Source: Obrimoposthia wandeli (Eukaryota). From it: a DNA stretch of 64,000 nucleotides. The stretch covers positions 868,001 to 932,000 of the forward strand of contig CDROCS010000777.1 of assembly GCA_977020255.1 (NCBI GenBank), given 5' to 3'. How positions within the stretch are numbered: position 1 is the first letter of the stretch; every line of letters starts with the position of its first letter. A model generated the notes under the pieces. The model searched no databases. It was given only the letters and a program-made list of their open reading frames with translations, and was not told the DNA's origin. The position numbers and the translations under genes were made by a program. Shown in pieces: positions 24,068 to 43,872 of the stretch.

Positions 24068-24075
24068 TATAAAAG
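24068..24075 (+). promoter_or_regulatory. Candidate LTR TATA box (TATAAAAG)
   Basis: Consensus TATA. The last ATG before 27271 lies immediately upstream (24065), consistent with a TSS near 24100. Confidence 0.55.
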
Positions 24076-24801: not shown

Positions 24802-24908
24802 CCAACTGATTGAACGATTCTGCCAGGCTCGCAAATACCACATACGGACCCTACACCGGACGTCCCACGAGTTGCTGTAACTGGTAAGCACACAGATTAG
24901 GTCCATTC

Positions 24909-25345: not shown

Positions 25346-25605
25346 CACACAGAGAGAGTAAGGAACAAAGAAATATTTGGTTAGAGATAAGAAGTAGGAG
25401 CGAAGAAAATTAAGAGAGTTGCGTTATAGATTAACCAACCTGAGTAAGAAGACTAAACCTAAGAAACTTAATCACCTGAACGTAAAATCAATACGTGGTT
25501 CATCCCCACTTCTTGTAGAGACTCACAGAAGTCCTTTAGGAATTTTATCATACTTTTTAGAAATACGTACATAAACGTATTGTGGTGTTAGTTACGTGAA
25601 TTTTG

Positions 25606-25611
25606 AATAAA
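25606..25611 (+). promoter_or_regulatory. Candidate polyadenylation signal AATAAA (functional copy expected in the 3' LTR)
   Basis: AATAAA ~205 nt before the LTR end; position fits an R/U5 border. Confidence 0.45.
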
Positions 25612-25824
25612 CAATTTCCTACATTAGAACAAGTTGTTTTACACCCTTCAGACTAAGAGACATCAAATCAATACCTTCAGATAGTACAAGAGATTAGGCA
25701 ACCATAACACTAAGTAGGCCACGACCAACTTTAAGACCTGCTTCTAATCGAACTCACGTTGGGGCCCTCCGCACACTAAGAGGCTCTATACCAAGTTTCG
25801 TATAGAAACCCCAACATATTAAAG

Positions 25825-25843
25825 TGGTGCCCCGAGTGAGGAT
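25825..25843 (+). other. Primer-binding site complementary to elongator tRNA-Met
   Basis: TGGTGCCCCGAGTGAGGAT, 8 nt after the LTR, matches 18/19 the complement of the animal tRNA-Met(e) 3' end as I recall it (TGGTGCCCCGTGTGAGGAT). Confidence 0.85.
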
Positions 25844-25869
25844 AGCTCGTCGGACACAGCGAATTCACG

Positions 25870-26852
25870 TAGAATAAGTTCAGATAAGTTTTGGATAATT
25901 GAGAATAAGTTTCAGGTAAATAGAATAAGTTCAGATAAGTTGCGGATAATTGAGAATAAGTTTCAGGTAAATAGAATAAGTACAGATATTAAGAATAAGT
26001 TTCAGATATTGAGAATAAGTTTCAGATATTAAGAATAAGTTTCAGATATTGAGAATAAGTTTCAGATAAATTGAGAATAAGTTTCAGATAAATTGAGAAT
26101 AAGTTTCAGCAGAAGAATATAGACAATTGAGAATAAGTTTCAGAAGAAGATATAAGTAAATTGAGTTAAGAATTTGATAAGTTTTAAGAAATCGGGTAGA
26201 TTTGTTCCTCGAAGTTAAGAATTTGATAAGTTTTTGAGAAATCGAGTAGATTTGTTCCTCGAAGTTAAGAATTTGATAAGTGTTAAGAAATCGGGTAGAT
26301 TTGTTCCTCAAAGTTAAGAATTTGATAAGTGTTGAGAAATCGGGTAGATTTGTTCCTCGAAGTTAAGAATTTGATAAGTTTTTGAGAAATCGAGTAGATT
26401 TGTTCCTCGAAGTTAAGAATTTGATAAGTGTTAAGAAATCGGGTAGATTTGTTCCTCGAAGTTAAGAATTTGATAAGTGTTGAGAAATCGGGTAGATTTG
26501 TTCCTCGAAGTTAAGAATTTGATAAGTTTTTGAGAAATCGAGTAGATTTGTTCCTCGAAGTTAAGAATTTGATAAGTGTTAAGAAATCGGGTAGATTTGT
26601 TCCTCGAAGTTAAGAATTTGATAAGTGTTGAGAAGTCGAGTGGATTTGTTCCTCGAGTCAGTAAATTTTATAAGTGAGAATCGAGTGGATTGATACTCGA
26701 AGTAATTAATTGAATAAGTTAAGTCGGGAGACTCTGTCCTCGAACTAATTAAAAAGATAAAATCGTAAGTGAATTTGATAAAGTGAGAATCGAGTGGATT
26801 GATACTCGAAGTAATTAATTGAATAGGTTAAGTCGGGAGACTCTGTCCTCGA
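25870..26852 (+). repeat. Leader tandem repeats: ~20-bp GAGAATAAGTTTCAGATATT units, 49-50-bp unit x10, ~109-bp unit x2
   Basis: Read directly from the sequence; the 49-50-bp units contain TCG(A/G)GTAGATTTGTTCCTCGA. Confidence 0.9.
25913..25972 (+). promoter_or_regulatory. Two candidate major splice donors (CAG|GTAAAT at 25915/16 and 25966/67)
   Basis: Consensus-like 5' splice sites ~70 and ~125 nt after the PBS, the position of retroviral major donors. Confidence 0.5.
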
Positions 26853-27150
26853 ACTAATTAAAGAGATAAAAAGTCGTAAAATAAGAATTGTGAAATAAGA
26901 TAAAAATAATAAGTGAATTGATATCGTAAACGAATACATAATTGATAAGACAACGGATAATAGAAAAGGACCCGCGTATAATACTAGAAGACAAAGTCAG
27001 ATCCCCAAGGAAGAGATAAATAATAATAAAGTTAACCGAATTGAACAGGTTCCCCAAACAGATAACAAAGTAACAGAAAAGACTAGAGTCGAAGAAAACG
27101 TATCAGAAAGAGACGTTGATCAATCAGCGGTTTCAACCGGCAGTTTTAAT

Positions 27151-29631
27151 TTGACTGAATTATTTGGTGACATAGACCAAGAAGAATTTGAAATTGCCAA
27201 TCCAGTAGTGATTGAGGAAGTTCCATTGAATAATATTGCAGAAATAGTTGAAGACGATATAGTTGCAGATATGGCTCAACCAGGAGCTCAAGCAGATATT
27301 AATGCAGGAAATAATGTAGGTGACATGAATGCCGAGCAGTTGGCACAAGCTTTAAATGCGACGTTGAGACCCAATTTTTCAGGATCATTGCAGATTACAA
27401 AGTTTAAAGGAGATGAGGAAAGTATTTGTGACTTCCTCGCAGAATATTCGAGTTGTGCAGATGTTCAAGGATGGAACGATAAAGAAAAATGTATCAGAGT
27501 ACAGGCACATTTAACCGGATTAGCACTTGAAGTGTATAAACATTTGACAGAAGCAGAACGTTTGGACTGGCCAACGTTAGAAAATGCTTTTATTGGAAAA
27601 TTGGTATTAGGAGATTTAGCCAAAGTAAATAAGCGACTCATGAGAGAACGGAAACAGAAACATGATGAAGGCGTGAATGAATACGCGTATGTTTTGAGAA
27701 CCTTGGCCGCAAGAGCGTACCCAAGAAGAATAATGAGAAATCAGGACGGTAATCCTGTAGCTCCAGAAGCACAAGCAGCGGAAAATGACCGGAACCAAAA
27801 TGAAATGGCAGAGGTCTTGTTAGATATATTTAGAGGAGGATTGAAAAAGGATATTAAAGTGTTATTAGCGGTATCGGATACAAATGATTTTGATAACGCC
27901 GTGCGAAAGGCGAGAGAGATCGAGAAAAATATAAAGAATAATGCAGCATTGGCAATCTACGCAATGACTGCAGGTGACGACGATAAGACAAAGGTCTTCG
28001 TGAATAAAACAGAACCGAGTAATTTTCAGAATCGAAATTGTGGACAAAATAAGTTTGAAAAAGTAGATGAATCCAGTAACGGAAATAGAGATAATTTCCG
28101 AAGTAGGAATCGAGATGATTCGAGAGGTAGAAATAATAGTGAGTCTTGGAACAGGAATCGAGATGATTCAAGAGGTAGAAATAATAATGATTCGTGGAAT
28201 AGAAATAGAGATGATTCCAGGAATAGATTTAATAGAGATAATTCAGGAAATCGCCAACCTTGGAGAGGAGACGATAGGAATTATAACGCCAACAGAGGAG
28301 AGCGAAGTGACTCTCGATTTGGAAATAATACAGGAAATAGTGACGGAAGATTCAATAATCGAGGAAGCGGGTTTGAATCGAATTTCCGAAGAAATGATTT
28401 TAGAGGACGCTATGATAATAGACAGAATAGTCGTCGAGTACAGTTCGAAGATGAACAAAATAAGATAGATATTCGAGGGAGAATAATGTGTTACACGTGT
28501 AAACAAATGGGTCACTATTCGAGAGACTGTACGAGAAGTAAAGAGTTCGGAACTAACAGATTTGGAAATAATAATTTCGGTAATAATAATTTTGGAAATA
28601 ATTATAGAGGATATAATTCACCTCCGCCATGGAATAGAGGTGGTGGATATACTCCACAGCCATGGAGACTGAATAATCAGTATACAGATAGACAACAGTC
28701 ACCAGGTAGATATAATAACTATGCAGATAGACAGCAAGGAGCTGAGAGATACAGTAATTACGTAGGACAGCAAGGAGCTGAGAGATATAATAATTCCGGT
28801 AGATATAATAATAATAATGTCGACAAGACAAATAGTCGAGAGAGTTCGCCGAAACCGAAAGGAAATTTTAGTTATGTAAGCGATGACAGTGATAGGAATC
28901 GCGAGACCGAGCTTCGACGCGAAATAGATTTTGAAGATAGTGATAGTAAATTTGAACGAATGTTGGGAATAATTAAAGATTCACCACATACAAAGATGGC
29001 GAATTCATCTACGTTGTCGAAACAAGAGAGAAGTCTACACTCGAGAGAAGAGATGAATGATTTAATGAATAGAATATTAGAAGCGTATGAGACACCAATA
29101 GAGAAAACGTGTAACGCACAACCTATGACTGATCATGTGGAAGCAGCGAGAAATGCTACGAGTATGGAAAATGTAAAAAAGATAATTAGTGAAGCTAAGG
29201 AGACGTTAAATCAACCGTTAGATGAAACGAGTGAAGCTCCAGAAGTTCTGGCCAAATTGCAAACAATTAAAGTGCACCGATTGGAAGAAGTGCGTGCAGA
29301 ATTGGTTAAACATAGTCATGATAACTTGGGTTACAAAGAAGTACCCCGAGGACTACTGAAAGGTTATGGTCGTTATGTACAGAGATCAAACCAAAAAGGA
29401 ACGATGAAAATTTCACTTCGATTAATTTCCGGACAGATAATACATGAAAAACTTAACGTGTATCAAACAATGAAAACGATTCGGAAAAAGTTAGCCGAGA
29501 AACTTGAAATTGATGGAATGAATATGTTGTTCCATTATAAAGGGAGATCACTAGATGATGAGGACGTACCAGTCGAGTTTGGATATCCGATAGGAAATGA
29601 ATTAGAGGAAAAATTGATGTCATCACTGTAG
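27151..29631 (+). CDS. gag: Gag: capsid-like domain, R/N/G-rich region, CCHC knuckle, C-terminal ubiquitin-like domain
   Basis: Retrotransposon-gag-like core (WPTLENAF..YAYVLRTLAARAYP..FRGGLKKDIK) and CYTCKQMGHYSRDC at 28489-28530. First ATG is 27271; the frame is open from 26917. Confidence 0.9.
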   Translation: MTELFGDIDQEEFEIANPVVIEEVPLNNIAEIVEDDIVADMAQPGAQADINAGNNVGDMNAEQLAQALNATLRPNFSGSLQITKFKGDEESICDFLAEYSSCADVQGWNDKEKCIRVQAHLTGLALEVYKHLTEAERLDWPTLENAFIGKLVLGDLAKVNKRLMRERKQKHDEGVNEYAYVLRTLAARAYPRRIMRNQDGNPVAPEAQAAENDRNQNEMAEVLLDIFRGGLKKDIKVLLAVSDTNDFDNAVRKAREIEKNIKNNAALAIYAMTAGDDDKTKVFVNKTEPSNFQNRNCGQNKFEKVDESSNGNRDNFRSRNRDDSRGRNNSESWNRNRDDSRGRNNNDSWNRNRDDSRNRFNRDNSGNRQPWRGDDRNYNANRGERSDSRFGNNTGNSDGRFNNRGSGFESNFRRNDFRGRYDNRQNSRRVQFEDEQNKIDIRGRIMCYTCKQMGHYSRDCTRSKEFGTNRFGNNNFGNNNFGNNYRGYNSPPPWNRGGGYTPQPWRLNNQYTDRQQSPGRYNNYADRQQGAERYSNYVGQQGAERYNNSGRYNNNNVDKTNSRESSPKPKGNFSYVSDDSDRNRETELRREIDFEDSDSKFERMLGIIKDSPHTKMANSSTLSKQERSLHSREEMNDLMNRILEAYETPIEKTCNAQPMTDHVEAARNATSMENVKKIISEAKETLNQPLDETSEAPEVLAKLQTIKVHRLEEVRAELVKHSHDNLGYKEVPRGLLKGYGRYVQRSNQKGTMKISLRLISGQIIHEKLNVYQTMKTIRKKLAEKLEIDGMNMLFHYKGRSLDDEDVPVEFGYPIGNELEEKLMSSL

Positions 29632-29672
29632 GACGTCAAGAGTTAGTAGATAATGAAGGATTAACCGAGATA

Positions 29673-30647
29673 TTGAATTCTGCGTTAGAAATGATAAAAA
29701 CGCCTATAGAAATTTTAGACAGTTCAAGCGAAAGCGGAGATAATGATGTAGCTGAAGTTTGGAACAAGACATCCACACCAGAACCGTACGTAGCTGAATT
29801 ACAAGACATGAATTTAGAAAATGAGTTGACAACTCCAGTGGTTGAGGTGCCACCAGAACCAGATATAATTCCAATCAGACAAGATGAAGTCACGGATACA
29901 GCCAACCAAGTGAGACAAAACGAAACCGTAACACAACTAGTAGGAGAAGACGAAGTCTCCGAGATTGTAGATTTGGATTCACCAATTTGGCATGCCGCAT
30001 ACAAAGATAGACAAGCAGAGCAAATGATGCGACAAAATGAAGAGATTGGCCATGAAGAAGGACCAAGTCAAGAGATACAGTATAATGGTGAAACGTATGA
30101 TCCAGGAGAGAATCAAACTGAGTATCAGTATTTTCGAAGAGGGCCTGGAAGACCTAGAAAAGGTGAAAGTATATTACGAAATGTTCTAACTGCACCACAA
30201 ACTGATGAAGAAAGACATCTAAGTATTGGACAGTTAGCGGCGTCATTAGAGCAGTATAGTGCAGAGAGGAATGAAGATATCAGAGGTGATATGAATTCGG
30301 AAACTCCAAGTAGTAAAGATATACTTACGGGAATTCTCAGGCAAGTGAAGCCGAAGTTGTTCAAAATGTACAGAGATGAAACAACCGATATAACAGACAA
30401 TTTGACTAAAGCAGTCAGATCACAGATGTCTGCAGTAAAGAGAATGACCGCGAATCATGTATACCATGCATCGATAGATAGATTTTATGACGGTGAAGTT
30501 TTAGCGAGATTATGTGGAAACCAGACTACAAATAAAAAGTTAATTACAGCGATCACATATCTATGTTTCCAATTGACGGAACGAACGAGCCAACCTCACG
30601 AAGTCAAACAAGGAATAAATGAAGCGATGTATTTGATCGAGAAGTAA
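29673..30647 (+). CDS. Acidic/AT-hook/putative BEN-domain segment, probably a continuation of Gag in the -1 frame
   Basis: 324-aa ORF in the element's codon style; AT-hook RRGPGRPRKG (30135-30164); frame open from 29601, overlapping the ORF1 end. Confidence 0.75.
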   Translation: MNSALEMIKTPIEILDSSSESGDNDVAEVWNKTSTPEPYVAELQDMNLENELTTPVVEVPPEPDIIPIRQDEVTDTANQVRQNETVTQLVGEDEVSEIVDLDSPIWHAAYKDRQAEQMMRQNEEIGHEEGPSQEIQYNGETYDPGENQTEYQYFRRGPGRPRKGESILRNVLTAPQTDEERHLSIGQLAASLEQYSAERNEDIRGDMNSETPSSKDILTGILRQVKPKLFKMYRDETTDITDNLTKAVRSQMSAVKRMTANHVYHASIDRFYDGEVLARLCGNQTTNKKLITAITYLCFQLTERTSQPHEVKQGINEAMYLIEK

Positions 30648-30673
30648 CTTTCGAAGATCCAAGACTTAAAAAA

Positions 30674-32311
30674 TTGGCAAAAAAGGGACTTTTTGCTATA
30701 AAAAAGGATGGTAAAGACGTAATTAAATGCCACAAGTGTAAAAAAGAACGAATTATAGACAGATATACTCTTGAGCTACCTAAGAAAATTTTACATCATG
30801 AATTTTGCGAATTTTGTACTTTTAAAAACAAAATAAAGCAAAAAGAACAGAAAACCGAATGTATAATCGAATACCAAATCACACGAAAAGAGATTTTGGC
30901 TCAACAAGACACACCGGTAGTGTCATTCGTGAGAAGGTTATATCCAAAAGAAGCAGAAAGAATCAGAGAATTGGTAGAATTAAAAATAAAAACTACGCGA
31001 AACGGATACGGATCGATTTTTGAATTACTGCGAGATAAAGATGACAGTACAATTGAAACAAAAGAGAAAGAGTACATAAATGAACTAGAATACGTACTAG
31101 AAGATCCGGAATGCGCAGTTTGCATGGTCAACAAAATAGAAGTTGCCTTTCTACCATGCGGACATGTAAGAACATGTCGGAGATGTGCGAATGAAATGGT
31201 ATCATGTCCGATTTGTCGAAGAATAATAGATCGACAAGTGAGAAACATTAGATTTCACTATCCAAACATAGGAAGTGGACTGACAGAGTGTAATAATTCG
31301 ATAAATACAATATACCATATGGGAAACATAAATGGAGCACAGCGACCAGCAGCTATCATTAGAGTAAATAATTTAAGAGTAAAAGCCTTAATTGATACAG
31401 GTGCTGTAGCTTCGATAGTAAGTGAAGACTGTTTGACAGAGGAACAGAAACGAACAATGGCAGAACCAGATGAATTCTTGGTATCGGTCAATGGAGACCC
31501 TGTAAAAGTGACGGGAATATTACCATGTACATTTATTATTGGACGTAATACGATCACTATACCAGTTAGAATTATGAAAGAATGTCCTGAACCTACAATT
31601 TTAGGAATGGATGTACTATCACAACTTAAAGGGATAAGTATTGATTTACAAGATCCAAGATTGAAGGATAGCACATCAAACAGACAAATAAACCAAATTG
31701 ATGTAATTATAGAGAATCCTATAAAAATCGGTAAAAGATCACAATTTCTCATTCAAGGTCACACATTATCAGAAGATAAAGGACCAGTTGTGTTCGAACC
31801 ATCACGAGATTTCATAGAGAAATACGAATTACCAGTTGTGAGTACAGTATGCCTGATCGAAAACCACAAAATACCAGTTAGACTGATGAATACAACCAAC
31901 AATGACATCCTATTATACAGAGGAATGAGGTTGGGAAAGATAGCACAGATGGAGAATTCCACTGTATGCGCTATGAAACTCGATAAAGATACGAATGATT
32001 ACGAAGAAATAGTAATCCAATCAGAAAGACTGACAACTAGAGAAAAGAAACAATTACTTGATCTAATACATAAATTTCCAAAAGTAATTGCAAAAAATCC
32101 ATATGACATAGGAGAAACACCTGTCATAAAACATACAATACCACTGACAGAAGACAAAGTAGTCAGAAGAAGACCATACCGAGTACCATTACAATTACAA
32201 GATGAAGTAAAAAGTCAGATCGAAGATATGTCTAAAACAGGAGTAATTAGACCGAGTTTTTCGCCATTCTCAGCACCTGTGGTGTTGGTAAAAAGAAGGA
32301 TGGGAAAATGA
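30674..32311 (+). CDS. pol: BIR-like + IAP-type RING + aspartic protease + start of RT
   Basis: C3HC4 RING at 31112-31216, protease LIDTGAVASIVS (DTG at 31394), RT N-terminus RRRPYRVP..IRPSFSPFSAPVVLVK. Frame open from 30623. Confidence 0.9.
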   Translation: MAKKGLFAIKKDGKDVIKCHKCKKERIIDRYTLELPKKILHHEFCEFCTFKNKIKQKEQKTECIIEYQITRKEILAQQDTPVVSFVRRLYPKEAERIRELVELKIKTTRNGYGSIFELLRDKDDSTIETKEKEYINELEYVLEDPECAVCMVNKIEVAFLPCGHVRTCRRCANEMVSCPICRRIIDRQVRNIRFHYPNIGSGLTECNNSINTIYHMGNINGAQRPAAIIRVNNLRVKALIDTGAVASIVSEDCLTEEQKRTMAEPDEFLVSVNGDPVKVTGILPCTFIIGRNTITIPVRIMKECPEPTILGMDVLSQLKGISIDLQDPRLKDSTSNRQINQIDVIIENPIKIGKRSQFLIQGHTLSEDKGPVVFEPSRDFIEKYELPVVSTVCLIENHKIPVRLMNTTNNDILLYRGMRLGKIAQMENSTVCAMKLDKDTNDYEEIVIQSERLTTREKKQLLDLIHKFPKVIAKNPYDIGETPVIKHTIPLTEDKVVRRRPYRVPLQLQDEVKSQIEDMSKTGVIRPSFSPFSAPVVLVKRRMGK

Positions 32312-35300
32312 GATTCTGTATAGATTTCAGAGAACTGAACAAGATCACAAGAAAAGATGTGTATCCATTACCTAGAATCGAAGAGATGCTCGATAAATTG
32401 GGTAATTCAGATTATTTTACGACATTGGATTTGCAGAGTGGATACTGGCAAATCGAGATAGAGGAAGAAGATAAACACAAAACAGCCTTTTCCTGCGGAG
32501 ATGGATTATACGAATGCGAAAAGATGCCATTCGGACTGACAGGAGCTCCAGCAACATTTCAGCGTTGCATGAATTTTGTACTCGCATCGTGTGCAAACAC
32601 GATGGTGTATATTGATGACATAATAATATTTTCGAAAACGTTCGAAGAACATCTAAAAAATCTTGAAGTTGTATTTAAAAGACTGGAAAACGCTAAATTA
32701 AAAGTTAAACCTACAAAATGTGTATGGGCTAAAGAGCGAGTAACATTTTTAGGACATATAGTATCGAAAGAAGGCATTCGTCCTGATCCGGCAAAGATCG
32801 AGAAAGTAAAAGCGCATTTAGCGCCAAAGACTGTTAAGGAGATACAGAGTTTTTTAGGTCTTGCGAATTATTATAGACGATTTGTTGAACATTTTTCAGA
32901 TATAGCAACACCATTGAGAAAGTTGACGAGAAAAGATGAGAAGTTCATATGGGGAGAAGAAGCCCAACAAGCGTTCGAGCATTTAAAAGAAAGACTGATA
33001 AAAGCACCAATATTAGCGTTTCCAGATATAAACCGACAGTTCATACTCATGACAGATGCAAGTAACTATGCTGTAGGAGCAGTATTGGGACAAGAGGATG
33101 ACGAAGGAAGAGAACACGTCATTGCGTATGCGAGTAGAGGATTAAACAGAGCCGAAAGAGGATACTCTGTTATCGAAAAGGAATGTCTAGCCATAGTGTA
33201 TTCATGTAGACAGTACAGACACTATTTGCTAGGACAAAAAGTATTCCTGTATACAGATCACAAACCACTACAGTTCTTATATAAACATAGAGATGAGATG
33301 AGTAGATTAAACAGATGGTTTCTAAAATTGGCCGAATTCGATCTAGAAATCCGTTATAGAACCGGAAAGTCGAATGGCAACGCAGATTGTTTATCGAGAT
33401 TGACAAATGTAGATGAGAAAGGAAACATAATTCCAGAAGAAGATGAAACCAATGACCAAAAAGGAGAAGCAAATCTACTGACGATTTTGCTAAAGACGGG
33501 TAAAATAGACAAAGAGATCATCAAAGAACAGAAAGAAGATGAAGAACTGAGTCTAATCAAAGAATTGCTGGTGAAAGGAGATCTAAACGATGAAATGACG
33601 AAAAAATACTCGATAAAAGAAGGAATCTTGTATATTGTCAATAATGTCGGAAAGATAGTAGTAGTAATTCCGAAGTCATTGAAAACAGCAGTGATGATCC
33701 AGTATCACGACGGAACACTGGGAGGACATCTGTCAGGGCGAAAGACAATAGCCAGAATCAAAGAGAAGTACCATTGGGATGGTATGGAAGACGACATAAA
33801 ACAATGGTGTAAACAATGTAAAGTATGTTTAACCAGAAAAGACACCGGAACTCGTACTAAAGTTCCGTTGAAACCAATGCCAGTTCCCTTGGCACCAATG
33901 GAATTCACAGCGATGGATATATTGGGACCATTGAGAGAATCAAGTAAAGGAAACAAGTATGTCATAGTATTTACGGACTACATGACGAGATGGGTAGAAG
34001 CATATCCCATGCAGAACCAGAAAGCTGAAACAATAGCGCAAATCTTAGTGGAAGAGATAATATTTCGATACGGAGTGCCTAGAAAGTTGTTAACGGATCA
34101 AGGTAAGAACTTCACTGGAGAAGTCATAAAAGCAGTATCGAAGATATTCGGAATCATGAAGTTACAAACTTCACCATATCACCCACAGACAGATGGTCTG
34201 GTGGAAAGGTTTAATAAAACTTTATGTATGATGGTACAATCCTATTGCTCAGACAAGCAAGAGGATTGGGATAAATATTTACCTTCATGTTTATATGCTT
34301 ACAGGAATTCAGTTCGAGAGGCGACAGGTCACACACCATTCTATCTGATGTATCTCAGACAGAACAATATGCCAATGGATCTGGAGTGGACCGAGCCAAC
34401 ATCCCAGTACCTAGAAACTGAACAATACATTGTCGTCATGAAGGAAAGATTACAAGATGCTTGGACCAAAGCCGGATTGAAGTTGAAATTCAATCAAGAA
34501 GGTTACAAGGAACAATACGACAAAAAAGCAAAACCACATGAATTTAGAGTCGGAGATCAAGTGATGATATTTTATCCAGTCATCGAACCAGGTCTATCGT
34601 TTAAACTTCATAGACCATACAAAGGACCATACAAGGTGATCCAGACAACCTCAACAAATTTGAAAGTAATCAACGAAGAGAATCGGAACAAAGAACCGAT
34701 GATTGTACATGCAAATCGATGCAAATTAGTACCAAATAAAGATAATGCGTCACGATATGAGTTAAGATCACAGAAATCGAAGCCAAATACCAATACCATT
34801 AAACTTACACGAATGGTAAGTGATCGGAACTACATAAACATGATGACGAGTGGTAGCGAGAAAAAACCAGCGAGAATTGGTATGCTCAGAATGAAGTGCC
34901 AAGAGGAAAAGGAAGTAATCCGACACATCGCACCACAAGAGATATTAGAAGAAGACGAAGAGATAATAGTTGTTTTCGAAAAAACACAACCGACAGATGT
35001 GGCTAAAGAAGTCATTGTGAAAGATGCACTGACAAACGAATTTCTATGCGAACTTAGAGTGTCATATTACGACGGAAATACATTAGTCGCATCACTTTAT
35101 CAAAATTCCAATGTGTTTACGACTGAGAAAGTGATAATCGAAATCACATTGACACCAAACATAGTTGCATGGCAGAACTATGACAGTACTGAAGCAGGAC
35201 TAGCCAGTCAGGAAGAGAAGGAACCGGCCGGTGGTCACATACTGCATGGTACACCAAAAAGACTCAAACAAGAATACCACGATGTAATAATGGTATTACG

Positions 35301-38300
35301 TAATTCACATGGGAAAAGAGATATCATGAGAGTCCATTTAATCGACGCTGACACTGAAAAGATAATTTGTCAGATGGACACCAAATACTTTGATGGAAAG
35401 ACAATTGTATGTTGTATACCAGAATCTCACCGATTAGAGACAGATCAAACGGAAGTATCTGTAAGGTTGAGCGTAATAGAAGGATTCCATTCGCCAACCC
35501 ATCCGGAAGTGACTAACAATAAAATCATCAAAGCAACGGCAGAATTACGCATTGACAGCGGATACCGGAAGTGGGAAGCTAAAAATAAAAAGCCACAAAG
35601 AATCAATATGATCCGAGAACAAGTGACCAGCTCAATCCAGCCAAAATATCATGCTGAAATAGTATCATCCGCGCCAAGTGTAATTACATCGATAAACGAC
35701 GAAATTATAATTTTACTAAAAAATCGATGGCCGTCATCAACCGAGATACGAGTAAACTTAATTAATTATGCGAAGACACCGATATCTAAGCTGAATGTTA
35801 CCTATTTTGATGGATTGTCCATCATGGGTAAATTGGAAACAATTGTCATGTGCTATGGAGCACAGTTCCAAGTTGAGATACTTAAAGATAGTGTAATACC
35901 GTATCCGATTCACAAATACGAAGGGGAAATCAACCCAATTATTCTAACACCTTCATTAATTTCAGTTCAGACAGACATACCAGAATACCCTTCGAGCGAG
36001 TCTAGTGAAGACAGCGAACCGGAAAGTAACGATACAGAATCAACAGAATCCGAAGATAACATAATAGAGCGATTCGGAAGAACCATGGAGGTTGAATTCG
36101 CTAAAGAGAACAGAAAAAGACAAAACATAGAATTCGTGAAACAGAATATACAAGAAAGACGAATTAAATCTGCAGAAGAGACCGAGTCGGAAGAAGACTC
36201 AACAAAGGAACAGACATCAGAGACAAAGATGAATATCCCTCCAGCAATACGAATGCTGAGAGGAAAGAAACTGGCAAAACTAACTAACATCGACGACCAG
36301 ATAGAGAAGAGATTAGAAAGACTAAAACTTGAAGAGTCAGAATTAATGCCACCAATGAGTGAGATCATTCCAGGTAAGTTATACCTCGGAAATGTGGAGG
36401 ATGCCACAGATGAAAAGAAACTGTTGGAACAAGGGATAACATATGTGATCAACGTTACAATGAATCACAAATCGCAATATCAGACGATCAGAGCTATGAC
36501 ATTAAGAGTAAAAGACTCAATGGACGCTAATCTTCTCGAATGGTTCGTAGAAACAAACGAAATACTTCACAGAGAACTCCGAAACCAAGGAAAAGTGTTG
36601 GTACATTGTCAGAAAGGAATTTCTCGATCAGCAACCCTAGTATTAGCATATCTAATAAAGACTAGACGAATGCAGGTACTAGAAGCGTTAAAATACCTAC
36701 AGGAGAGAAGAAGTATTGCAAACCCAAATCTTAATTTTTTGGGACAGTTGGCAAATTACCAACTTCTGTTGCAAGAACAAAGACGGATGGACGACATTCC
36801 TGAGGATCCAAAGGAAAAGAATTTCCTCCAAGCATTATCACTGACTGGGTTATTTTTAGCTGGAGTCGACAAAATTACACAGATAATGCCAAAAGTATTT
36901 TTATGTCATCCAGGAGATATAGATACTGCTGGATTAAAGTTCCACAGTATCAACCGAGTAATCAACATTGTTGAAGTCGGAAACGAGATAATTAGTCTGT
37001 GTCAAAATACTGAAGATGACACCACTCGATACATACATGCTTCCAATCGAGAGATAAACGATGCGCAACAACATCTGACGAAATTGACTCAAACCATCCA
37101 AGCTGAAGTCACAGAAGGAAACGGCGTTCTGATATATCAGAAAAAAGGTACAATGTTAGCGCCTACCATAGGTGTATCCTTGTTGGTAGAGTACCATGGT
37201 CACACGCCAGAAGAAGCGATGGTCTACATCAAACAGAATAGACCAAATACGGAATTCAAACCGTTACTCGTTCGAGAAATAGAGAAATACACCGAAAAGA
37301 GGAAGCAACAACGAGAAACAAATGAAGCTACAACAACAGTGCCCAGCTTTCAATACCAAAGATTGCTAGCGATAGGCTTGTTAAGTTGTTTAATGCCGAT
37401 AACGGGAGCACAGGAGATAGGCTCCAACCACGGAAATAGTTCCTGGTTCAACGAAATCCACAATTACACCATACAGTACCATACGCCGGCACTGATGATG
37501 CTATTAGTGTTGTTAGGACTAATTGATGTGTGGATCATCCGAAAATGTCTTCGATCTATGAGAACCGACAGTAAAAGATTTCAGTTTGTAAAGATGAAAA
37601 GACCAAATGGACCAACGAACAAAGTGCTTGTGTATCTAGACGAAAGGATCGAAGATAACATAGTAAATGAAGCGATATTTTACCCACAAAACAGAATACT
37701 GAAGCAATTCCGAATAGATTATGAAGCTGACCGACAACGCACACTTGACCAAATATCAACAACATTCGCCGGATGCAAGCGAAGAAAACGAGTTGTAAAG
37801 GAAATACAAAAAGATGCTGATACAAAAGGACCAACGTATATATTCAACGGCGATGTCATCAAAACACGTGAGTATGGAAGTAAGAGAGTGATAATTGAAA
37901 CGATGGAAGGACATAAAACATGCTTGTCCGCCAAAAATGGATTCGGAAAGTTGACGATACAAGGTAAACCAGTACAGTTGATTATCGGAAGAGATGGAAT
38001 CGAGGAGATGTCAAAACAACGACAAACAACAAAACGAACCAATCAGAAACAGATATCTCTCAAACGATTGATAATTAAAACCCTTTGCAAAAGGTCAGTC
38101 AAGGCCCTGTGCACCGTTGCACAAGGATTGATTTATGGAGTAGTAATTGGATTGGTACTGCAAGCCATGCCAACCAGTAAAGCCGAATTGATGACACTAT
38201 CCGAATATAATTTACATTTGAGAAATCTAGACAACACCCTAGAAATAATCAAGACATCCCACAGTAGAGCCGTGATGATCATGTGTGTAAAAGGATGTCC

Positions 38301-40026
38301 AGGACGAATGTGTATAGTCCCAGCAACCGAAATGATAACACTTAATGGACATTATGGAGTTAGTGTTGTCACATGTGAAGACTACATATTTGGACAAACT
38401 AAAATAGTGCTTCTCAGTGACACGTCCAACCAAAGTGCACACAAATTTAAGATATTAACCATCAAGAGTAAAGGAATACCAGCAGTACGTTATGGTATTC
38501 TAGAATTAGTTAATCCAATACTGGCACTGATCATTGGATTTATAATATTAATATTACTCATCTTGTTTTGTTGTTCAAAGATAGAGTCGAGATCAAAAAA
38601 GAAACGTCATGATCTCGCAAGACGAACAGGTCAAATGAACTTACAGAAATTCAACACAATCATACCAAGACCACCATTTCTAGATGAACCAGCACCAGAG
38701 TACCAGCCAACGATATATGAACACATAGAGGAAAGACCGTACTATATGAGTAATTTGACTTGTTTCATTGAAGTTCCTGAGTTTAGGAATCGAACGATCA
38801 TAGGAATCATGCTGATCGTACAAATCACCACTACCAAGGCTAGTTATGAGATCATGATCAGTAAATGGAGACAAGACGTAATACGGGCAATATACATAGA
38901 AATTCCCTTACTAAAAACAAATCACGTAGTAGACATTCATCTACAGACGTCAGCAACTGACAATATCGATCAGAAATTGTATGTCATCCGACAGGTCAGA
39001 ATAAAAATCGACCAAAATACACCCGTTTACAATTTAATATTATTGCATCATGAAAGAGTGTTATACCTACGGATAACAATATCAAAGAGGAAGCGGATTA
39101 TCCAAAGTATCCGAACAAAGTCATTAATATTACCTAGAGATGAGCGCATCTGGAAAATTGTTGACAGGATTATGATCACAGGTAGACGACGTAAAGCCGT
39201 ATGGAATTCCGTTAGGATATTTTTCAGATTGCTAGAAACTGACAGCGTGACAGTAATGTGTCCCAACCCAGATGGCGTAATCAGATTCGAAATCCAAAGC
39301 CAAATGTTAGTACCACATTTTAACACAGAATGTCTGTGTAATCGAATTGCCAGTAATTCTACAGAGACCTCGACCATAATCATGATAATAACAGGTGAAA
39401 TATTCTACATAACTCTAAGATACCAGAACCGTCGATTTCGCAGATACGGTATAAGTATCAAACCCAGGAAAATCATTCCCAGAAGACCAATCCTAGTCAA
39501 AAAGAAGGCAAAGGTAATCGAAAGTAAACGACATTCCAAGAAACCGACAGTGATCAAAACAAAGACAGAAGCGAAAGAAAAAGAGTCCAATCCCAGAAAC
39601 CAAAGTACAATTATTAAGAGGACAAGAGTGAGGGGAACGATCCCACTAGATCCCAAACATCATTTCCAATCCAAAATAATAATACCTGTTCCATCAGAAA
39701 CAAAACACCCAAATCCCCGAATTTTTAGAAAATCGGACATAATACATGGAAACCGATCAAAACCCATGGAAATATCATTCGAACCGACAAACAACAAAAT
39801 GAAGTATGATTATAAAACATCAGACAGCGGAATAACAGCAGTCAATGCCCTAATTGGAATGGCCGTAGTGTCAACAGCGGTGGTTCTACTTACAATCGTG
39901 TGCGTAAAAGGCAGTCAAGTATGCCCAGGAATACGACGAAAATGCGAAGGATTGCGATGCTGTGACACACCCATCATGGAGGAAGTGGAATTACGACCCT
40001 TACCTCCACCTCCCATCAAGATATGA
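32308..40026 (+). CDS. pol: Pol (RT, RNase H, integrase) fused to ~1730 aa of accessory domains (3 Ig-like repeats, DSP, pseudo-DSP, membrane region)
   Basis: YIDD at 32608; RNase H TDAS..EKECLAI..YTDH; IN HHCC, D-D-E core and GPY; no stop until 40026. Confidence 0.97.
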   Translation: MRFCIDFRELNKITRKDVYPLPRIEEMLDKLGNSDYFTTLDLQSGYWQIEIEEEDKHKTAFSCGDGLYECEKMPFGLTGAPATFQRCMNFVLASCANTMVYIDDIIIFSKTFEEHLKNLEVVFKRLENAKLKVKPTKCVWAKERVTFLGHIVSKEGIRPDPAKIEKVKAHLAPKTVKEIQSFLGLANYYRRFVEHFSDIATPLRKLTRKDEKFIWGEEAQQAFEHLKERLIKAPILAFPDINRQFILMTDASNYAVGAVLGQEDDEGREHVIAYASRGLNRAERGYSVIEKECLAIVYSCRQYRHYLLGQKVFLYTDHKPLQFLYKHRDEMSRLNRWFLKLAEFDLEIRYRTGKSNGNADCLSRLTNVDEKGNIIPEEDETNDQKGEANLLTILLKTGKIDKEIIKEQKEDEELSLIKELLVKGDLNDEMTKKYSIKEGILYIVNNVGKIVVVIPKSLKTAVMIQYHDGTLGGHLSGRKTIARIKEKYHWDGMEDDIKQWCKQCKVCLTRKDTGTRTKVPLKPMPVPLAPMEFTAMDILGPLRESSKGNKYVIVFTDYMTRWVEAYPMQNQKAETIAQILVEEIIFRYGVPRKLLTDQGKNFTGEVIKAVSKIFGIMKLQTSPYHPQTDGLVERFNKTLCMMVQSYCSDKQEDWDKYLPSCLYAYRNSVREATGHTPFYLMYLRQNNMPMDLEWTEPTSQYLETEQYIVVMKERLQDAWTKAGLKLKFNQEGYKEQYDKKAKPHEFRVGDQVMIFYPVIEPGLSFKLHRPYKGPYKVIQTTSTNLKVINEENRNKEPMIVHANRCKLVPNKDNASRYELRSQKSKPNTNTIKLTRMVSDRNYINMMTSGSEKKPARIGMLRMKCQEEKEVIRHIAPQEILEEDEEIIVVFEKTQPTDVAKEVIVKDALTNEFLCELRVSYYDGNTLVASLYQNSNVFTTEKVIIEITLTPNIVAWQNYDSTEAGLASQEEKEPAGGHILHGTPKRLKQEYHDVIMVLRNSHGKRDIMRVHLIDADTEKIICQMDTKYFDGKTIVCCIPESHRLETDQTEVSVRLSVIEGFHSPTHPEVTNNKIIKATAELRIDSGYRKWEAKNKKPQRINMIREQVTSSIQPKYHAEIVSSAPSVITSINDEIIILLKNRWPSSTEIRVNLINYAKTPISKLNVTYFDGLSIMGKLETIVMCYGAQFQVEILKDSVIPYPIHKYEGEINPIILTPSLISVQTDIPEYPSSESSEDSEPESNDTESTESEDNIIERFGRTMEVEFAKENRKRQNIEFVKQNIQERRIKSAEETESEEDSTKEQTSETKMNIPPAIRMLRGKKLAKLTNIDDQIEKRLERLKLEESELMPPMSEIIPGKLYLGNVEDATDEKKLLEQGITYVINVTMNHKSQYQTIRAMTLRVKDSMDANLLEWFVETNEILHRELRNQGKVLVHCQKGISRSATLVLAYLIKTRRMQVLEALKYLQERRSIANPNLNFLGQLANYQLLLQEQRRMDDIPEDPKEKNFLQALSLTGLFLAGVDKITQIMPKVFLCHPGDIDTAGLKFHSINRVINIVEVGNEIISLCQNTEDDTTRYIHASNREINDAQQHLTKLTQTIQAEVTEGNGVLIYQKKGTMLAPTIGVSLLVEYHGHTPEEAMVYIKQNRPNTEFKPLLVREIEKYTEKRKQQRETNEATTTVPSFQYQRLLAIGLLSCLMPITGAQEIGSNHGNSSWFNEIHNYTIQYHTPALMMLLVLLGLIDVWIIRKCLRSMRTDSKRFQFVKMKRPNGPTNKVLVYLDERIEDNIVNEAIFYPQNRILKQFRIDYEADRQRTLDQISTTFAGCKRRKRVVKEIQKDADTKGPTYIFNGDVIKTREYGSKRVIIETMEGHKTCLSAKNGFGKLTIQGKPVQLIIGRDGIEEMSKQRQTTKRTNQKQISLKRLIIKTLCKRSVKALCTVAQGLIYGVVIGLVLQAMPTSKAELMTLSEYNLHLRNLDNTLEIIKTSHSRAVMIMCVKGCPGRMCIVPATEMITLNGHYGVSVVTCEDYIFGQTKIVLLSDTSNQSAHKFKILTIKSKGIPAVRYGILELVNPILALIIGFIILILLILFCCSKIESRSKKKRHDLARRTGQMNLQKFNTIIPRPPFLDEPAPEYQPTIYEHIEERPYYMSNLTCFIEVPEFRNRTIIGIMLIVQITTTKASYEIMISKWRQDVIRAIYIEIPLLKTNHVVDIHLQTSATDNIDQKLYVIRQVRIKIDQNTPVYNLILLHHERVLYLRITISKRKRIIQSIRTKSLILPRDERIWKIVDRIMITGRRRKAVWNSVRIFFRLLETDSVTVMCPNPDGVIRFEIQSQMLVPHFNTECLCNRIASNSTETSTIIMIITGEIFYITLRYQNRRFRRYGISIKPRKIIPRRPILVKKKAKVIESKRHSKKPTVIKTKTEAKEKESNPRNQSTIIKRTRVRGTIPLDPKHHFQSKIIIPVPSETKHPNPRIFRKSDIIHGNRSKPMEISFEPTNNKMKYDYKTSDSGITAVNALIGMAVVSTAVVLLTIVCVKGSQVCPGIRRKCEGLRCCDTPIMEEVELRPLPPPPIKI
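36355..36775 (+). other. Dual-specificity phosphatase domain (catalytic motif intact) within the polyprotein
   Basis: SEIIPGKLYLG..GITYVINVT..VLVHCQKGISRSATLVLAYL..RRSIANPNLNFLGQL; HCxxGxxRS at 36604-36630. Confidence 0.95.
36874..37290 (+). other. Second DSP-fold domain lacking the catalytic Cys/Arg (pseudophosphatase)
   Basis: ITQIMPKVFL..INRVINIV..GNGVLIYQKKGTMLAPTIGVSLLVEYHGHTPEEAMVYIKQNRP parallels domain 1, with the HCxxGxxR motif degenerate. Confidence 0.8.
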
Positions 40027-40149
40027 TGAGTCAGAGGAGGTTGTAGATAAATTAGTGTGTGAAATATGTAGAAATATCTAGAAGCGATTGTACAAATAGT
40101 AGCAGTATATAAAACTCATGTAGAAATTAATCATCATCATGTATTTAGA

Positions 40150-40449
40150 ATGGCCGAAGAATGCCCAATATGTTTAGAAGATCTAACCGAACGAAGAACA
40201 AGACCCGAAACCTGCAACCATTTACACCACGAGGAATGTTTATCGACATGGATCAGAACTTATGGACAGTTCGGACACCCAACATACCCTCGTTGCCCTA
40301 TATGCAGAAGACAATTCGCAAGATTCGTCATGTTAGAACCCAACCAAAGGGATGTATATGTACAGGTGGTATTCTGCTGGAAGAATTTCGGAGAGTGTTG
40401 GTGTTATTACTGTTTGTCAGATCGACAAAATCAGACCACTTTTGTGTAA
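40150..40449 (+). CDS. Small RING-H2 protein 1 with C-terminal Cys cluster
   Basis: CPIC..CNHLHHEEC..W..CPIC, then CWKNFGECWCYYC. Confidence 0.9.
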   Translation: MAEECPICLEDLTERRTRPETCNHLHHEECLSTWIRTYGQFGHPTYPRCPICRRQFARFVMLEPNQRDVYVQVVFCWKNFGECWCYYCLSDRQNQTTFV

Positions 40450-40509
40450 AGATCACACAACCACCAGTCCTCAATCGAGCCCAAATTCAACATCAACCCT
40501 CCCACAGTA

Positions 40510-40815
40510 ATGTCTGGAGAATGTTCCATCTGCTACGAGAGCATCGTGGACTTCTACACCAAGCCCAACAACTGCGACCACCTTTTCCACGTCGAATGCC
40601 TCGAGACGTGGATCCCCATCGCAAACAGCAACAACCCCCTCGACTTCCCAACCTGCCCGATGTGCAGAGCGACCTTCTCAGTACACTACGTGTACAACCA
40701 AGACATCCTCCAAGCAGTGGTACCCATCGTACACTGCTGGAAAACCATCTGCGATTGCTGGTGCTCGTTCTGCGTGGAAGAGCGAAGCACAGGCCAGCCC
40801 AATCCCCAACAATAA
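40510..40815 (+). CDS. Small RING-H2 protein 2 (paralogue of protein 1)
   Basis: CSIC..CDHLFHVEC..W..CPMC, then CWKTICDCWCSFC. Confidence 0.9.
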   Translation: MSGECSICYESIVDFYTKPNNCDHLFHVECLETWIPIANSNNPLDFPTCPMCRATFSVHYVYNQDILQAVVPIVHCWKTICDCWCSFCVEERSTGQPNPQQ

Positions 40816-41148
40816 TCGAAGGTAACTTTCTGACTTGAACATGACATCATGAACTACCCTGTGTATCGCATACCGCGATAAATTAGCTACCATAATTGTA
40901 ATCATAATTATATAATCTTGTGAACTGTAAATTGACCATTACCATTTTTATGTATGATGTTTAACTGAAATTGTAATTATTATACTGAATTTCTAAAAAG
41001 ACAATTTTTATGCTTAGTGTGAATGCGTAAACATGCCTAAAATCGAAACAAAACTCGGTAGGATTAGATAACTAAGGATTCATTTTGAAACAAAATTTAA
41101 ATTAACGATGAGAACGGTGAACCCCAAATTGAAAGGAGTCATTTTCTC

Positions 41149-41649
41149 ATGCAGATGTTGTGCTCCGTATGCATGGAGAAGATTTGGGCGGCATCAGCAT
41201 CCCCTGTCGGCTGCCGCCACAAGTTCCACGAATCCTGCCTATATACTTGGGCCCGACTTCGACCCGGACAAGTCAATTGCCCCTATTGCCGCACTCCCTT
41301 CGCGGAATGGACACTACAGTGTCGAGGGCGCCACAAGGGCACCCATTCGCTCACCAGCTGTATTGGTGGCGAGCACTGCCAGTGCCCCGACTGTATCGCG
41401 CGCCGTCGCGATGCAAAACTCGCCCTCCGCGAGAAATACCGGTCAACCCGTGACCCCCGCTCATGGCAGCGTGGCCGTCAAATATGGCTCAAGAATCGCG
41501 GAGTACACGGGCGGTACACGACCATTTTTCACCCGAGCCAACACCTCACCATGCGCCAGCAGATGATACTGTACGATGGCGGCCCACCATCGTATCCAGA
41601 ACTACCACTGGAGCAGGTCTTGCTGTTTTTGAGAGACCGGAACAATTGA
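41149..41649 (+). CDS. Small RING-H2 protein 3 with basic C-terminal extension (true start may be ATG 41155)
   Basis: CSVC..CRHKFHESC..W..CPYC, then CIGGEHCQCPDC. Confidence 0.9.
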   Translation: MQMLCSVCMEKIWAASASPVGCRHKFHESCLYTWARLRPGQVNCPYCRTPFAEWTLQCRGRHKGTHSLTSCIGGEHCQCPDCIARRRDAKLALREKYRSTRDPRSWQRGRQIWLKNRGVHGRYTTIFHPSQHLTMRQQMILYDGGPPSYPELPLEQVLLFLRDRNN

Positions 41650-41912
41650 CAAATCCCTGACAATCACCCTTGATCCTTTCCCTTGTATAATTTTTTGTTG
41701 TCGTAGTAATAATGTATAAATTGAGACATGCTCCAACTTATGCATTATAATTTCCCACTAAAAAACCGGGTTTTGGAAAATTTTTTTTTGGGCATGTTTG
41801 TTGAGGTTGAATGATTGATTTTGTAGGGATGAACCTAAAATCAACAGCCAAAGGCTTATTAAGTAAAATCGATACGTTCCGGGGACGTAACTTTTTTGGA
41901 ACCCCCGAGGTA

Positions 41913-43839
41913 TGTTAAGGTTGAGAATTAAGAAAATTAAATATTTTAGTTGATTAAATACTAAAATAAAAAAGCCTTGAAAGCAAGGTCGAAAATCAAA
42001 TTAAAATATTAAGTTGAATTTTAGAAGTAAAATTAGTGAAATATTAGGGTAAAATTAGGAGGACCACGAAGGTCGTGTATTATGCGAAAATGTATAAAAG
42101 TTAAACTAATTAACCCAAAAGGGACAATATCAAAAACAAAAACTTAATTAGAAGAAAAACGGTTAATTACAACCGTCGCTCAAGGATCCCAAAGGTAAGC
42201 ACTTTTGCGTGCAGTAATTAAGATTTGTTTTCCAGCTGTCATTGACTGACAGAATCCAAAATCACTAGAAGAAATCGACCAGGAAACCCAAAGCAGCTGC
42301 CAGTTGATTGGCAACTAGATTCCTACTTAAGAAGGGCCATTTCAGGGAACAAACACAATTTCGGAAGCACTCCGGAATCGACTGAAAACAAGAAATCGAC
42401 TTCTAGGTAACTTTTAGTGTAAGAAGTTATAAAATTGAAATTATCTAGGAAAATTGAAGTGAATACCTGAACTGTAACCAACTGATTAAAGAATTGAGAA
42501 ACGATTCCAACTGATTAAAGAATTGAGAAACGATTCCAACTGATTAAAGAATTGAGAAACGATTCCAACTGATTAAAGAATTGAGAAACGATTCCAACTG
42601 ATTAAAGAATTGAGAAACGATTCCAACTGATTAAAGAATTGAGAAACGATTCCAACTGATTAAAGAATTGAGAAACGATTCCAACTGATTAAAGAATTGA
42701 GAAACGATTCCAACTGATTAAAGAATTGAGAAACGATTCCAACTGATTGAAGAATTGAGAAACGATTCCAACTGATTAAAGAATTGAGAAACGATTCCAA
42801 CTGATTGAAGAATTGAGAAACGATTCCAACTGATTGAACGATTCTGCCAGGCTCGCAAATACCACATACGGACCCTACACCGGACGTCCCACGAGTTGCT
42901 GTAACTGGTAAGCACACAGATTAGGTCCATTCATTGCCCCTAGTAGGCAATTAGGTTATTTCATTACCCCTAGTTGGTAATTCTACGTTTTTAAAATAAT
43001 AAGCAAATTCATTACCCCTAGCTGGTAATTAGGACCTGTGTCTCTTTAACACAATCATTACCCCTAGTTGGTAATTAGGATCGGAACTTTATTCATTGTC
43101 CCCAGCGACAATTAGAAACTTACCAGACGTTTTTCCGTAAGATTCATTGTCCCTAGCTGGCAATTAGGTTCCTTCATTGCCCCTAGTTGGTAATTCGGAT
43201 AAATATTCATTGTCCCTAGTAGACAATTCGGTAAGACTCATTGTCCACTAGCTGACAATTCGATTCGCACATTGTCCGTAGTTGACAATTAGGAGCAAGT
43301 TTTATTGTCATCTGGACAATTAGGATTTTAGGAGATCCCTTGTCTACAGTAGACAATTTGGGTCGAACACACAGAGAGAGTAAGGAACAAAGAAATATTT
43401 GGTTAGAGATAAGAAGTAGGAGCGAAGAAAATTAAGAGAGTTGCGTTATAGATTAACCAACCTGAGTAAGAAGACTAAACCTAAGAAACTTAATCACCTG
43501 AACGTAAAATCAATACGTGGTTCATCCCCACTTCTTGTAGAGACTCACAGAAGTCCTTTAGGAATTTTATCATACTTTTTAGAAATACGTACATAAACGT
43601 ATTGTGGTGTTAGTTACGTGAATTTTGAATAAACAATTTCCTACATTAGAACAAGTTGTTTTTACACCCTTCAGACTAAGAGACATCAAATCAATACCTT
43701 CAGATAGTACAAGAGATTAGGCAACCATAACACTAAGTAGGCCACGACCAACTTTAAGACCTGCTTCTAATCGAACTCACGTTGGGGCCCTCCGCACACT
43801 AAGAGGCTCTATACCAAGTTTCGTATAGAAACCCCAACA
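41913..43839 (+). repeat. 3' LTR (1927 bp)
   Basis: Copy of 23888-25816 with four 1-bp homopolymer-length differences found by eye. Confidence 0.98.
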
Positions 43840-43872
43840 TATGAAACTCTTTTTTATTTGGTTTATATTGTT

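Follow-up and report, generated by a model that had tools for sequence, protein, structure and literature searches.

An Intact and a Degenerate Dual-Specificity Phosphatase Domain in Tandem within the Polyprotein of a Burro-Like Ty3/Gypsy Element

Organization of the Locus

The 64,000-nucleotide stretch of DNA analyzed here (contig CDROCS010000777.1 of the Obrimoposthia wandeli assembly GCA_977020255.1, positions 868,001–932,000 of the forward strand; termed the window below) contains a retrotransposon whose polyprotein carries two dual-specificity phosphatase (DSP) domains, of which the first (domain 1) is intact and the second (domain 2) is degenerate. The DSP-bearing sequence extends from 23888 to 43839 (about 20 kb) and is a Ty3/Gypsy long terminal repeat (LTR) element: LTRs, a primer-binding site (PBS), a target-site duplication, and the order protease (PR)–reverse transcriptase (RT)–RNase H (RH)–integrase (IN) are all present. 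A single open frame of 2,591 amino acids (aa) at 32251–40026 (+ strand) encodes RT, RH, and IN, followed by two in-frame DSPc stretches that, taken as a pair, match PF00782 with an E-value of 1.7e-42. A preliminary description of this DNA, which had placed an intact and a degenerate DSP at these coordinates inside a Gypsy polyprotein, was therefore accurate. That the pair is present and maintained by selection (see section Copies and Purifying Selection) is practically certain. The features of the element are as follows.

23888–25816, + strand: 5′ LTR (TG...CA), with an internal 29-bp tandem array
25825–25843, + strand: PBS, 19 nt complementary to the 3′ end of host tRNA-Met(CAT), including CCA
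26917–29631, + strand: Gag with a CCHC knuckle (zf-CCHC, E 1.7e-5) and a C-terminal ubiquitin-like stretch; the frame stops here in the window copy
29601–30647, + strand: continuation frame ending in a truncated, weak Bcl-2-like stretch (Bcl-2, E 0.1)
30623–32311, + strand: RING of the inhibitor-of-apoptosis protein (IAP) type, aspartic protease, spacer, and start of RT, from profile matches; the frame of the window copy is broken near 32.3 kb
32251–34740, + strand: RT (YIDD), RH, and IN, from profile matches
34876–35940, + strand: three beta-rich repeats 3′ of IN, containing the motif I-x-M-[LI]-R at 34876 and again at 35602
35941–36354, + strand: acidic spacer; the I-x-M-L-R motif at its end (36247) is a likely protease site before the phosphatase module
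36355–36771, + strand: DSP domain 1, with intact catalytic residues and an L-N-F-L docking-type motif at 36730
36871–37305, + strand: DSP domain 2, catalytically degenerate
37363–40026, + strand: three predicted signal-peptide plus transmembrane (TM) units (signal-like at 37363, 38125, and 38794; TM-like at 37483, 38518, and 39850)
40141–40452, 40510–40815, and 41101–41649, + strand: three short accessory RING-H2 open reading frames (ORFs; zf-RING_2, E 3.3e-10, 5e-9, and 1.8e-7)
41913–43839, + strand: 3′ LTR, from alignment of the LTR pair

Domain 1

Domain 1 alone matches PF00782 with an E-value of 2.2e-35 and 121.8 bits (cut-off 33.5). The codon for the general-acid Asp lies at 36514, the P-loop HCQKGISRS has its Cys codon at 36607 and its Arg codon at 36625, and the C-terminal signature P-N-x-x-F is present. 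The general-acid Asp (D57), about 30 residues upstream of the P-loop, does not vary in either of two alignments, one of 46 sequences and one of 38. The predicted fold has pLDDT values of 92–98 over residues 1–140, and the model matches catalytic domains of mitogen-activated protein kinase (MAPK) phosphatases (MKPs) with a Foldseek probability of 1.0 and a root-mean-square deviation (rmsd) of 1.0–1.5. Human MKP-2 gives Z 24.6 (rmsd 1.1 over 143 residues), and lower values were obtained with PTPMT1 (20.3), PTEN (16.3), and a baculovirus RNA 5′-phosphatase (14.5). The best sequence matches in the PDB are to DUSP10/MKP5 (E 2e-24), and L-N-F-L at 36730 aligns to the motif that opens helix α5 of MKP5, in which Leu comes first. 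Together with the BLAST rank of a host MKP gene and its orthologue (see section Origin of Domain 1), these matches support the MKP-like context originally proposed for this domain.

Domain 1 shares with DUSP10/MKP5 and DUSP16/MKP7 the HCX5R motif, the general-acid Asp, the fold, and the L-x-F motif (PMC6227380; PMC4802042). Unlike these enzymes, it has no rhodanese domain or kinase-interaction motif (KIM), and it lies inside a retroelement polyprotein, with a dead DSP domain and a putative membrane anchor downstream. No PF00581 match, indicative of a rhodanese-like/KIM domain, was found in the polyprotein; the host MKP gene on contig C934 has one. Domain 1 is accordingly not classed as a classical MKP, and may work like an MKP catalytic domain. 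From its intact residues and modeled fold, it is very probably competent in catalysis.

Domain 2

Domain 2 alone matches PF00782 with an E-value of 6.9e-7 and 29.6 bits, just below the cut-off, and DSPc is the sole family matched. Its best PDB matches are DUSP28 and related DSPs, and in the Atlas all 10 of the best matches that have a family belong to the DSPc family or clan; Atlas matches of domain 2 to viral DSP clusters were not accepted as kinship. Where the P-loop is expected, at 37135, it reads YQKKGTMLA, with a basic KK loop. The loss of the catalytic Cys and Arg had been recognized at the outset, and alignment to 35 single-domain DSPs indicates that the His, the Ser, and the general-acid Asp are also gone. 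As judged from its sequence, domain 2 is a real but distant DSP-fold pseudophosphatase. Its fold predicted from the single sequence (pLDDT 42) is unusable, and its good confidence in the model of the pair leans on an alignment with tandem DSPs.

The preliminary description suggested a duplication followed by a substrate-trap or adaptor role, and neither the duplication nor the substrate trap has been sustained. The two domains are 21% identical, and in frequency-weighted similarity to domain 2, domain 1 ranks only 77th of 264 DSP domains (the ranks of the two domains for each other are 77 and 234 of 264); with neither domain a near match of the other, an origin by duplication is unsupported, if not impossible. 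A role as a substrate trap is likewise unsupported, though conceivable, as both the Arg that binds phosphate and the docking motif are missing from domain 2. STYX and MK-STYX resemble domain 2 in having a DSP fold minus the catalytic Cys. However, the STYX-like protein P0027 keeps the His and G-x-S-R-S, with only the Cys changed, whereas the entire loop is lost in domain 2, together with the Asp and the docking motif. With the Arg and docking motif lost, unlike in the STYX-like protein, a scaffold or regulator is the more likely role.

Active and inactive phosphatase domains also occur in tandem in receptor protein tyrosine phosphatases (PTPs; D1–D2) and in Cdc14 (A–B), where the dead domain comes first. 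These proteins belong to different subfamilies from the DSP pair, and the two-domain model gave no superposition on RPTP-alpha (rmsd 12.4).

Copies and Purifying Selection

The best 40 of 2,297 candidate DNA matches lie on 40 different contigs and are 99–100% identical; protein searches of the genome returned 10,160–14,216 candidates, which are not copy counts. In 30 close copies, the domain 1 loop is intact in all 30, and the dead domain 2 loop is in frame in 29. Copies of an older subfamily, which is about 85% identical, were sampled by DNA downstream of the module, and 23 of 29 cover both domains. The copies counted number 117 (two duplicate loci of 119 were dropped), 88 of them chosen on DSP similarity.

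Between the subfamilies, the ratio of nonsynonymous to synonymous divergence (dN/dS), computed over 134 codons of domain 1 and 136 of domain 2, amounts to 0.13 and 0.12, respectively. The acidic spacer (0.34) and the region 3′ of domain 2 (0.27) have higher values. Constraint is also evident in the post-IN repeats (0.18 over 29 codons) and in the far 3′ part (0.21). Pairwise comparison, in which neutral private changes are counted too, gives 0.15 for domain 1 (24 of the 30 copies having enough cover), 0.155 for domain 2 (27 of 30), and 0.30 for both flanks. Shared and private variants were compared in 30 copies of the old subfamily, 29 of them chosen on DNA downstream of the module. The corresponding polymorphism ratio (pN/pS) in domain 1 is 0.25 for shared and 0.61 for private variants (p 0.015), and in domain 2 it is 0.16 and 0.65 (p 3.3e-6). 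Both DSP domains are under purifying selection between the subfamilies. Since domain 2 is conserved across the subfamilies under such selection, its dead state is old and maintained, and it constitutes a fully degenerate yet strongly constrained pseudophosphatase.

These results bear on the idea that the module is neutral passenger DNA or an assembly chimera. The window copy itself is defective, and the four sequencing runs, which cover 30 of 30 bins, represent one sample of unknown kind that is possibly the assembly's own. However, the distribution of the best matches over 40 contigs, the copies that contain both loops, the coverage of both domains by most copies picked downstream, the dN/dS of about 0.12–0.15, and the absence of host-gene introns all point the other way; the copy number and selection results refute this explanation, which is scarcely credible.

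The constraint on the dead domain, which matches that on its intact partner, also favors a reading in which both domains are structural or binding modules and any catalysis is incidental. Some viral phosphatases are reported to serve as such modules. Against this, natural copies, those of the old subfamily included, rarely lose the catalytic residues of domain 1: Cys is retained in 109 of 112 copies, Arg in 107 of the 112, and Asp in 109 of the 111 whose codon can be read. A purely structural role is distinctly improbable.

The Full-Length Element and Its Relationship to Burro

Over 1,937 aligned columns, the LTR pair differs by 1 mismatch and 4 gap columns (identity 99.74%), and the 4-bp target-site duplication TATG flanks the element at 23884–23887 and 43840–43843. 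Near-identical LTRs, the target-site duplication, and the PBS together indicate a very recent insertion. A check of the PBS primer gave 55 pattern matches in the genome, compared with 0 for the control, and tRNA-Met genes numbered 7 in L177 and 0 in L176. A tRNA-Met tandem array on contig C2252 of the assembly (G000 C2252:1-11900; L177), with a period of about 284 bp and 38 pattern matches, is the source of the element's primer. The 5′ leader (25817–26880) contains tandem arrays of 20, 49–50, and 109 bp, and the 29-bp array is found in both LTRs.

The window copy has undergone an internal deletion. At ~30640, about 3.3 kb of sequence retained by another natural copy (Env, a first protease-like domain, and BIR) is missing, and the deletion junction occurs only once in the genome. 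With the deleted part, the element would measure about 23 kb. The longer natural copy has a single frame of 4,633 aa that runs from Gag through both DSP domains in the order CCHC, ubiquitin-like, Bcl-2-like, Env, protease-like, BIR, RING, protease, RT, RH, IN, DSP, DSP. Its Env, between the Bcl-2-like region and the protease, is a mononegavirus-type fusion glycoprotein (PF24664, E 1.5e-95), and BIR (E 2.9e-13) and RING (E 2.8e-11) form an IAP-like pair. The ubiquitin-like (E 0.0012) and Bcl-2-like (E 0.1) matches are both below the cut-off, with their order as in Burro, and the Bcl-2-like stretch has no match in the PDB. A second aspartic-protease-like domain with D-T-G lies between Env and BIR (L147:6850-7150; G000 C399), which gives the full element two protease-like domains. 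Open frames of 5,026–5,478 aa surround 4 of 150 DSP matches and probably belong to the same family, for which the expected full length is about 5,470 aa.

The domain order of the longer copy is the layout given for the planarian element Burro (PMC6431247). Like Burro (GYPSM1, a giant planarian Gypsy element), the present element encodes one polyprotein of about 5,000 aa in thousands of copies, with Gag-CCHC, stretches weakly resembling the ubiquitin-like and Bcl-2-like regions, an in-frame Env between gag and pol with mononegavirus-type fusion-protein matches, BIR and RING, and PR–RT–RH–IN, and its cargo is directed at apoptosis and ubiquitination (PMC6431247; PMC13465017). The two differ in several respects. 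Burro is longer than 30 kb and, as Burro1, contains MATH and ankyrin domains, whereas the present element measures about 20–23 kb, and neither its window proteins nor its longer copy has a Pfam match to either domain. Conversely, two protease-like domains, three accessory RING-H2 ORFs, and C-terminal membrane units set the present element apart from Burro, and the tandem DSP module does not appear in the Burro domain lists in the available parts of PMC6431247 and PMC13465017. Because it lacks MATH and ankyrin and is shorter than 30 kb, the element is assigned, by domain layout, as Burro-like and not as Burro1.

Relatives with such a module were sought in several ways. A search by polyprotein length yielded 0 elements with a DSP module outside the host genome among 1,285 candidates. 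In a search of 1.84 billion representatives, the best 150 matches were ordinary DSPs only; 10 of these were scanned with Pfam and none had RT or integrase, although one, apparently a fused gene model, had a DDE domain. Pattern matches in metagenome contigs were confirmed in 0 of 33 cases, and viral contigs gave no match to the module. The closest Pol relatives are 50–56% identical and are unnamed or mislabeled entries, and 0 of 8 showed similarity after the integrase when compared as proteins. The closest, P0084 (56%), is labeled as a bacterial metagenome-assembled genome and is probably animal DNA; P0084 and the next closest, P0085, also have hydrophobic signal-like stretches 3′ of IN, without sequence similarity.

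No description of a DSP in an LTR element was found in the literature searched, a search that did not extend to Grohme 2018, Lee 2026, supplements, subscription journals, or Repbase. The word "phosphatase" occurs 0 times in PMC6431247, and the same holds for the available parts of PMC11410931 and PMC8532177, which mention Burro. The DSP pair is thus a cargo that is apparently undescribed, although giant elements of this kind are known.

LTR retrotransposons are commonly regarded as carriers of replication functions only, with Burro as the known exception. Domain 1 could have its substrates within the element itself (Gag, IN, the tail of Env, or the membrane proteins of the C-terminal part) and act on them while particles assemble or mature. 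Poxvirus VH1, for example, acts on virion proteins. Such a role would suit a domain that is translated together with the structural proteins as part of one polyprotein, and hence is present where particles form, that lacks the KIM domain that gives MKPs selectivity for p38 and ERK, and that belongs to an element with an Env. However, PF00782 is found in 0 of the best 120 Pol relatives (proteins of 444–1,416 aa only), other Gypsy elements replicate without a phosphatase, and the remaining cargo points to host apoptosis and ubiquitin pathways. Self-directed activity therefore seems unlikely.

Poxvirus VH1/OH1 and baculovirus PTPs resemble domain 1 in being DSPs on mobile genetic elements; unlike it, they are stand-alone genes of large DNA viruses. 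The viral DSPs are also structurally farther from domain 1 than MKP-2 is (Z 18.7, 18.1, and 14.5, compared with 24.6).

Origin of Domain 1

Searches for host DUSP genes with whole-protein or family queries were swamped by element copies or bacterial contigs, and host genes were seen only with a query made from the rhodanese part, which identified two host MKP genes among 14 candidates. These two intron-bearing genes, at G000 C934:218567-234306 and on C2055 (L162-L169), have the same intron positions. The gene on C934 has canonical introns, two of them inside the catalytic domain, and retains the rhodanese part; that on C2055 groups with DUSP10 in the tree.

Domain 1 is probably derived from a host MKP gene, captured as a spliced mRNA, as suggested by sequence comparison. 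Among 263 other DSP domains, its top two BLAST matches are the C934 host MKP (47%) and the orthologue of that gene, P0211 (48%), and three motifs, chosen after the alignment had been seen, are confined to domain 1, the C934 gene, and P0211 (3 of 265 sequences). The element's domain 1 has neither introns nor a rhodanese part, as expected for capture from spliced mRNA. If so, the element would be a natural case of retrovirus-style capture of a signaling gene.

Four observations weigh against this origin. In a DSP tree of 57 rows, which included 54 of 261 database domains and left domain 2 out, no supported clade holds domain 1, which is not grouped with the host MKP. The approximately unbiased (AU) test does not reject a clade of domain 1 and the host MKP (p 0.36). 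Frequency-weighted similarity ranks an unrelated atypical DSP first, P0211 second, and the host gene third. Finally, the QKG loop of domain 1 resembles those of atypical or viral-type DSPs.

As the donor is not settled by the tree, the AU test, or weighted similarity, the module might act on another host substrate, which could be ERK, a STAT-like factor, the tail of a membrane receptor, or a phospholipid. Targeting would then fall to domain 2 and the membrane anchor. The predicted membrane tethering and the strong conservation of domain 2, with its basic KK loop, would fit such a role, whereas the closest sequences and folds are those of MKPs, with MKP-2 the highest in Z, and not of lipid or RNA phosphatases. 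This possibility deserves some weight, although it is on balance improbable.

A Possible Role of the DSP Module in Host Signaling

A tentative reading, which draws mainly on motifs and domain order, is that the pair forms a protease-released, membrane-tethered module in which domain 1 dephosphorylates a host stress kinase, most likely JNK. In full-length copies, the polyprotein is a single chain of about 5,500 aa. The motif I-x-M-[LI]-R, which was chosen after it had been seen, is present at 5 places in the 4,633-aa frame, compared with 0.11 expected, and 0 of 2,000 shuffles reached 5. Each of the five marks a border between domains, including one that precedes domain 1 by 36 residues, and they are interpreted as putative sites of the element protease. 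This protease would cut at the motif that precedes domain 1, and the signal peptidase of the host would cut after the signal-like stretch 3′ of domain 2, giving a cytosolic product of about 390 aa that would be anchored in the endoplasmic reticulum membrane by the first signal stretch.

In classical MKPs, substrate choice depends on the KIM in the rhodanese domain (PMC6227380). The catalytic domains of MKP5 and MKP7 bind and dephosphorylate JNK1 without the KIM, via an F/L-x-F motif, and MKP7 needs this motif to block UV-induced apoptosis (PMC4802042). Domain 1, predicted to be catalytically competent, has no rhodanese domain or KIM and keeps the L-x-F motif used by MKP5 and MKP7 in JNK binding. 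The stress-MAPK target suggested in the preliminary description is therefore plausible. A KIM-less capture of this kind would keep JNK activity and lose most p38 activity. Stress and apoptotic signaling might then be damped in the expressing cell, beside the action of the Bcl-2-like, BIR-RING, and RING-H2 cargo. The BIR-RING of Burro1 is reported at second hand to protect stem cells from caspase-mediated death (PMC13465017), and damping of JNK would be consistent both with this report and with the element's other cargo. Domain 2 would serve as a folded, non-catalytic scaffold or regulator and not as a phospho-substrate trap, and domain 1 would, as argued above, likely have been taken as spliced mRNA from a host MKP gene.

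Several points weigh against this scheme. Cleavage sites and signal peptides alike are recognized by sequence pattern only, the signal peptides downstream of domain 2 having been identified by eye. An FXF-type motif is common to all MKPs (PMC4802042), and PNLNFLGQL is found in 13 of 265 DSP domains, so the motif does not single out JNK; as the L-x-F motif is not specific to JNK phosphatases, JNK is proposed as the target only conditionally. In all seven regions compared, pN/pS is lower in shared than in private variants, and constraint is thus not unique to the phosphatases. In addition, the frame of the window copy is broken at several places.

In a broader and rather doubtful form of this proposal, an env-bearing retroelement with a full anti-death kit (Bcl-2-like protein, IAP, RING ligases, and a KIM-less tethered MKP with a pseudophosphatase) would reset host JNK signaling from thousands of copies. 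If true, it would be the first signaling phosphatase used by an LTR retrotransposon, possibly as a mutualistic input to flatworm stem-cell survival and regeneration. The selected DSP pair would extend Burro-type cargo from apoptosis effectors to kinase signaling, and it opens to direct test the possible rewiring of host MAPK output by a transposon.

Other Features of the Element and the Assembly

The beta-rich repeats 3′ of IN have no Pfam match, and their resemblance to IPT/TIG in the Atlas is weak (recognition 1456); the constraint on them is strong. The C-terminal membrane units at 37363–40026 matched no Pfam family, have proline- and tyrosine-rich tails, and evolve under purifying selection (0.21–0.27). 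Contig cover falls beyond ~41090, and the third RING-H2 ORF may therefore be confined to some copies.

The genome is AT-rich, and the multi-copy COX1 of the assembly has AAA and ATA at positions where Asn and Ile are conserved, which presumably indicates genetic code 9 (flatworm or echinoderm); on this evidence the host is probably a flatworm. CpG transitions in the copies occur at only 1.6 times the rate of those outside CpG, a ratio that does not identify the host group. Bacterial contigs are numerous in the assembly, which also includes a second animal COX1 of the code-5 type (L146) and is therefore contaminated or mixed. A PiggyBac-like transposase fragment at 5386–6033 of the window (PF13843, E 1.5e-12) is unrelated to the phosphatase module.

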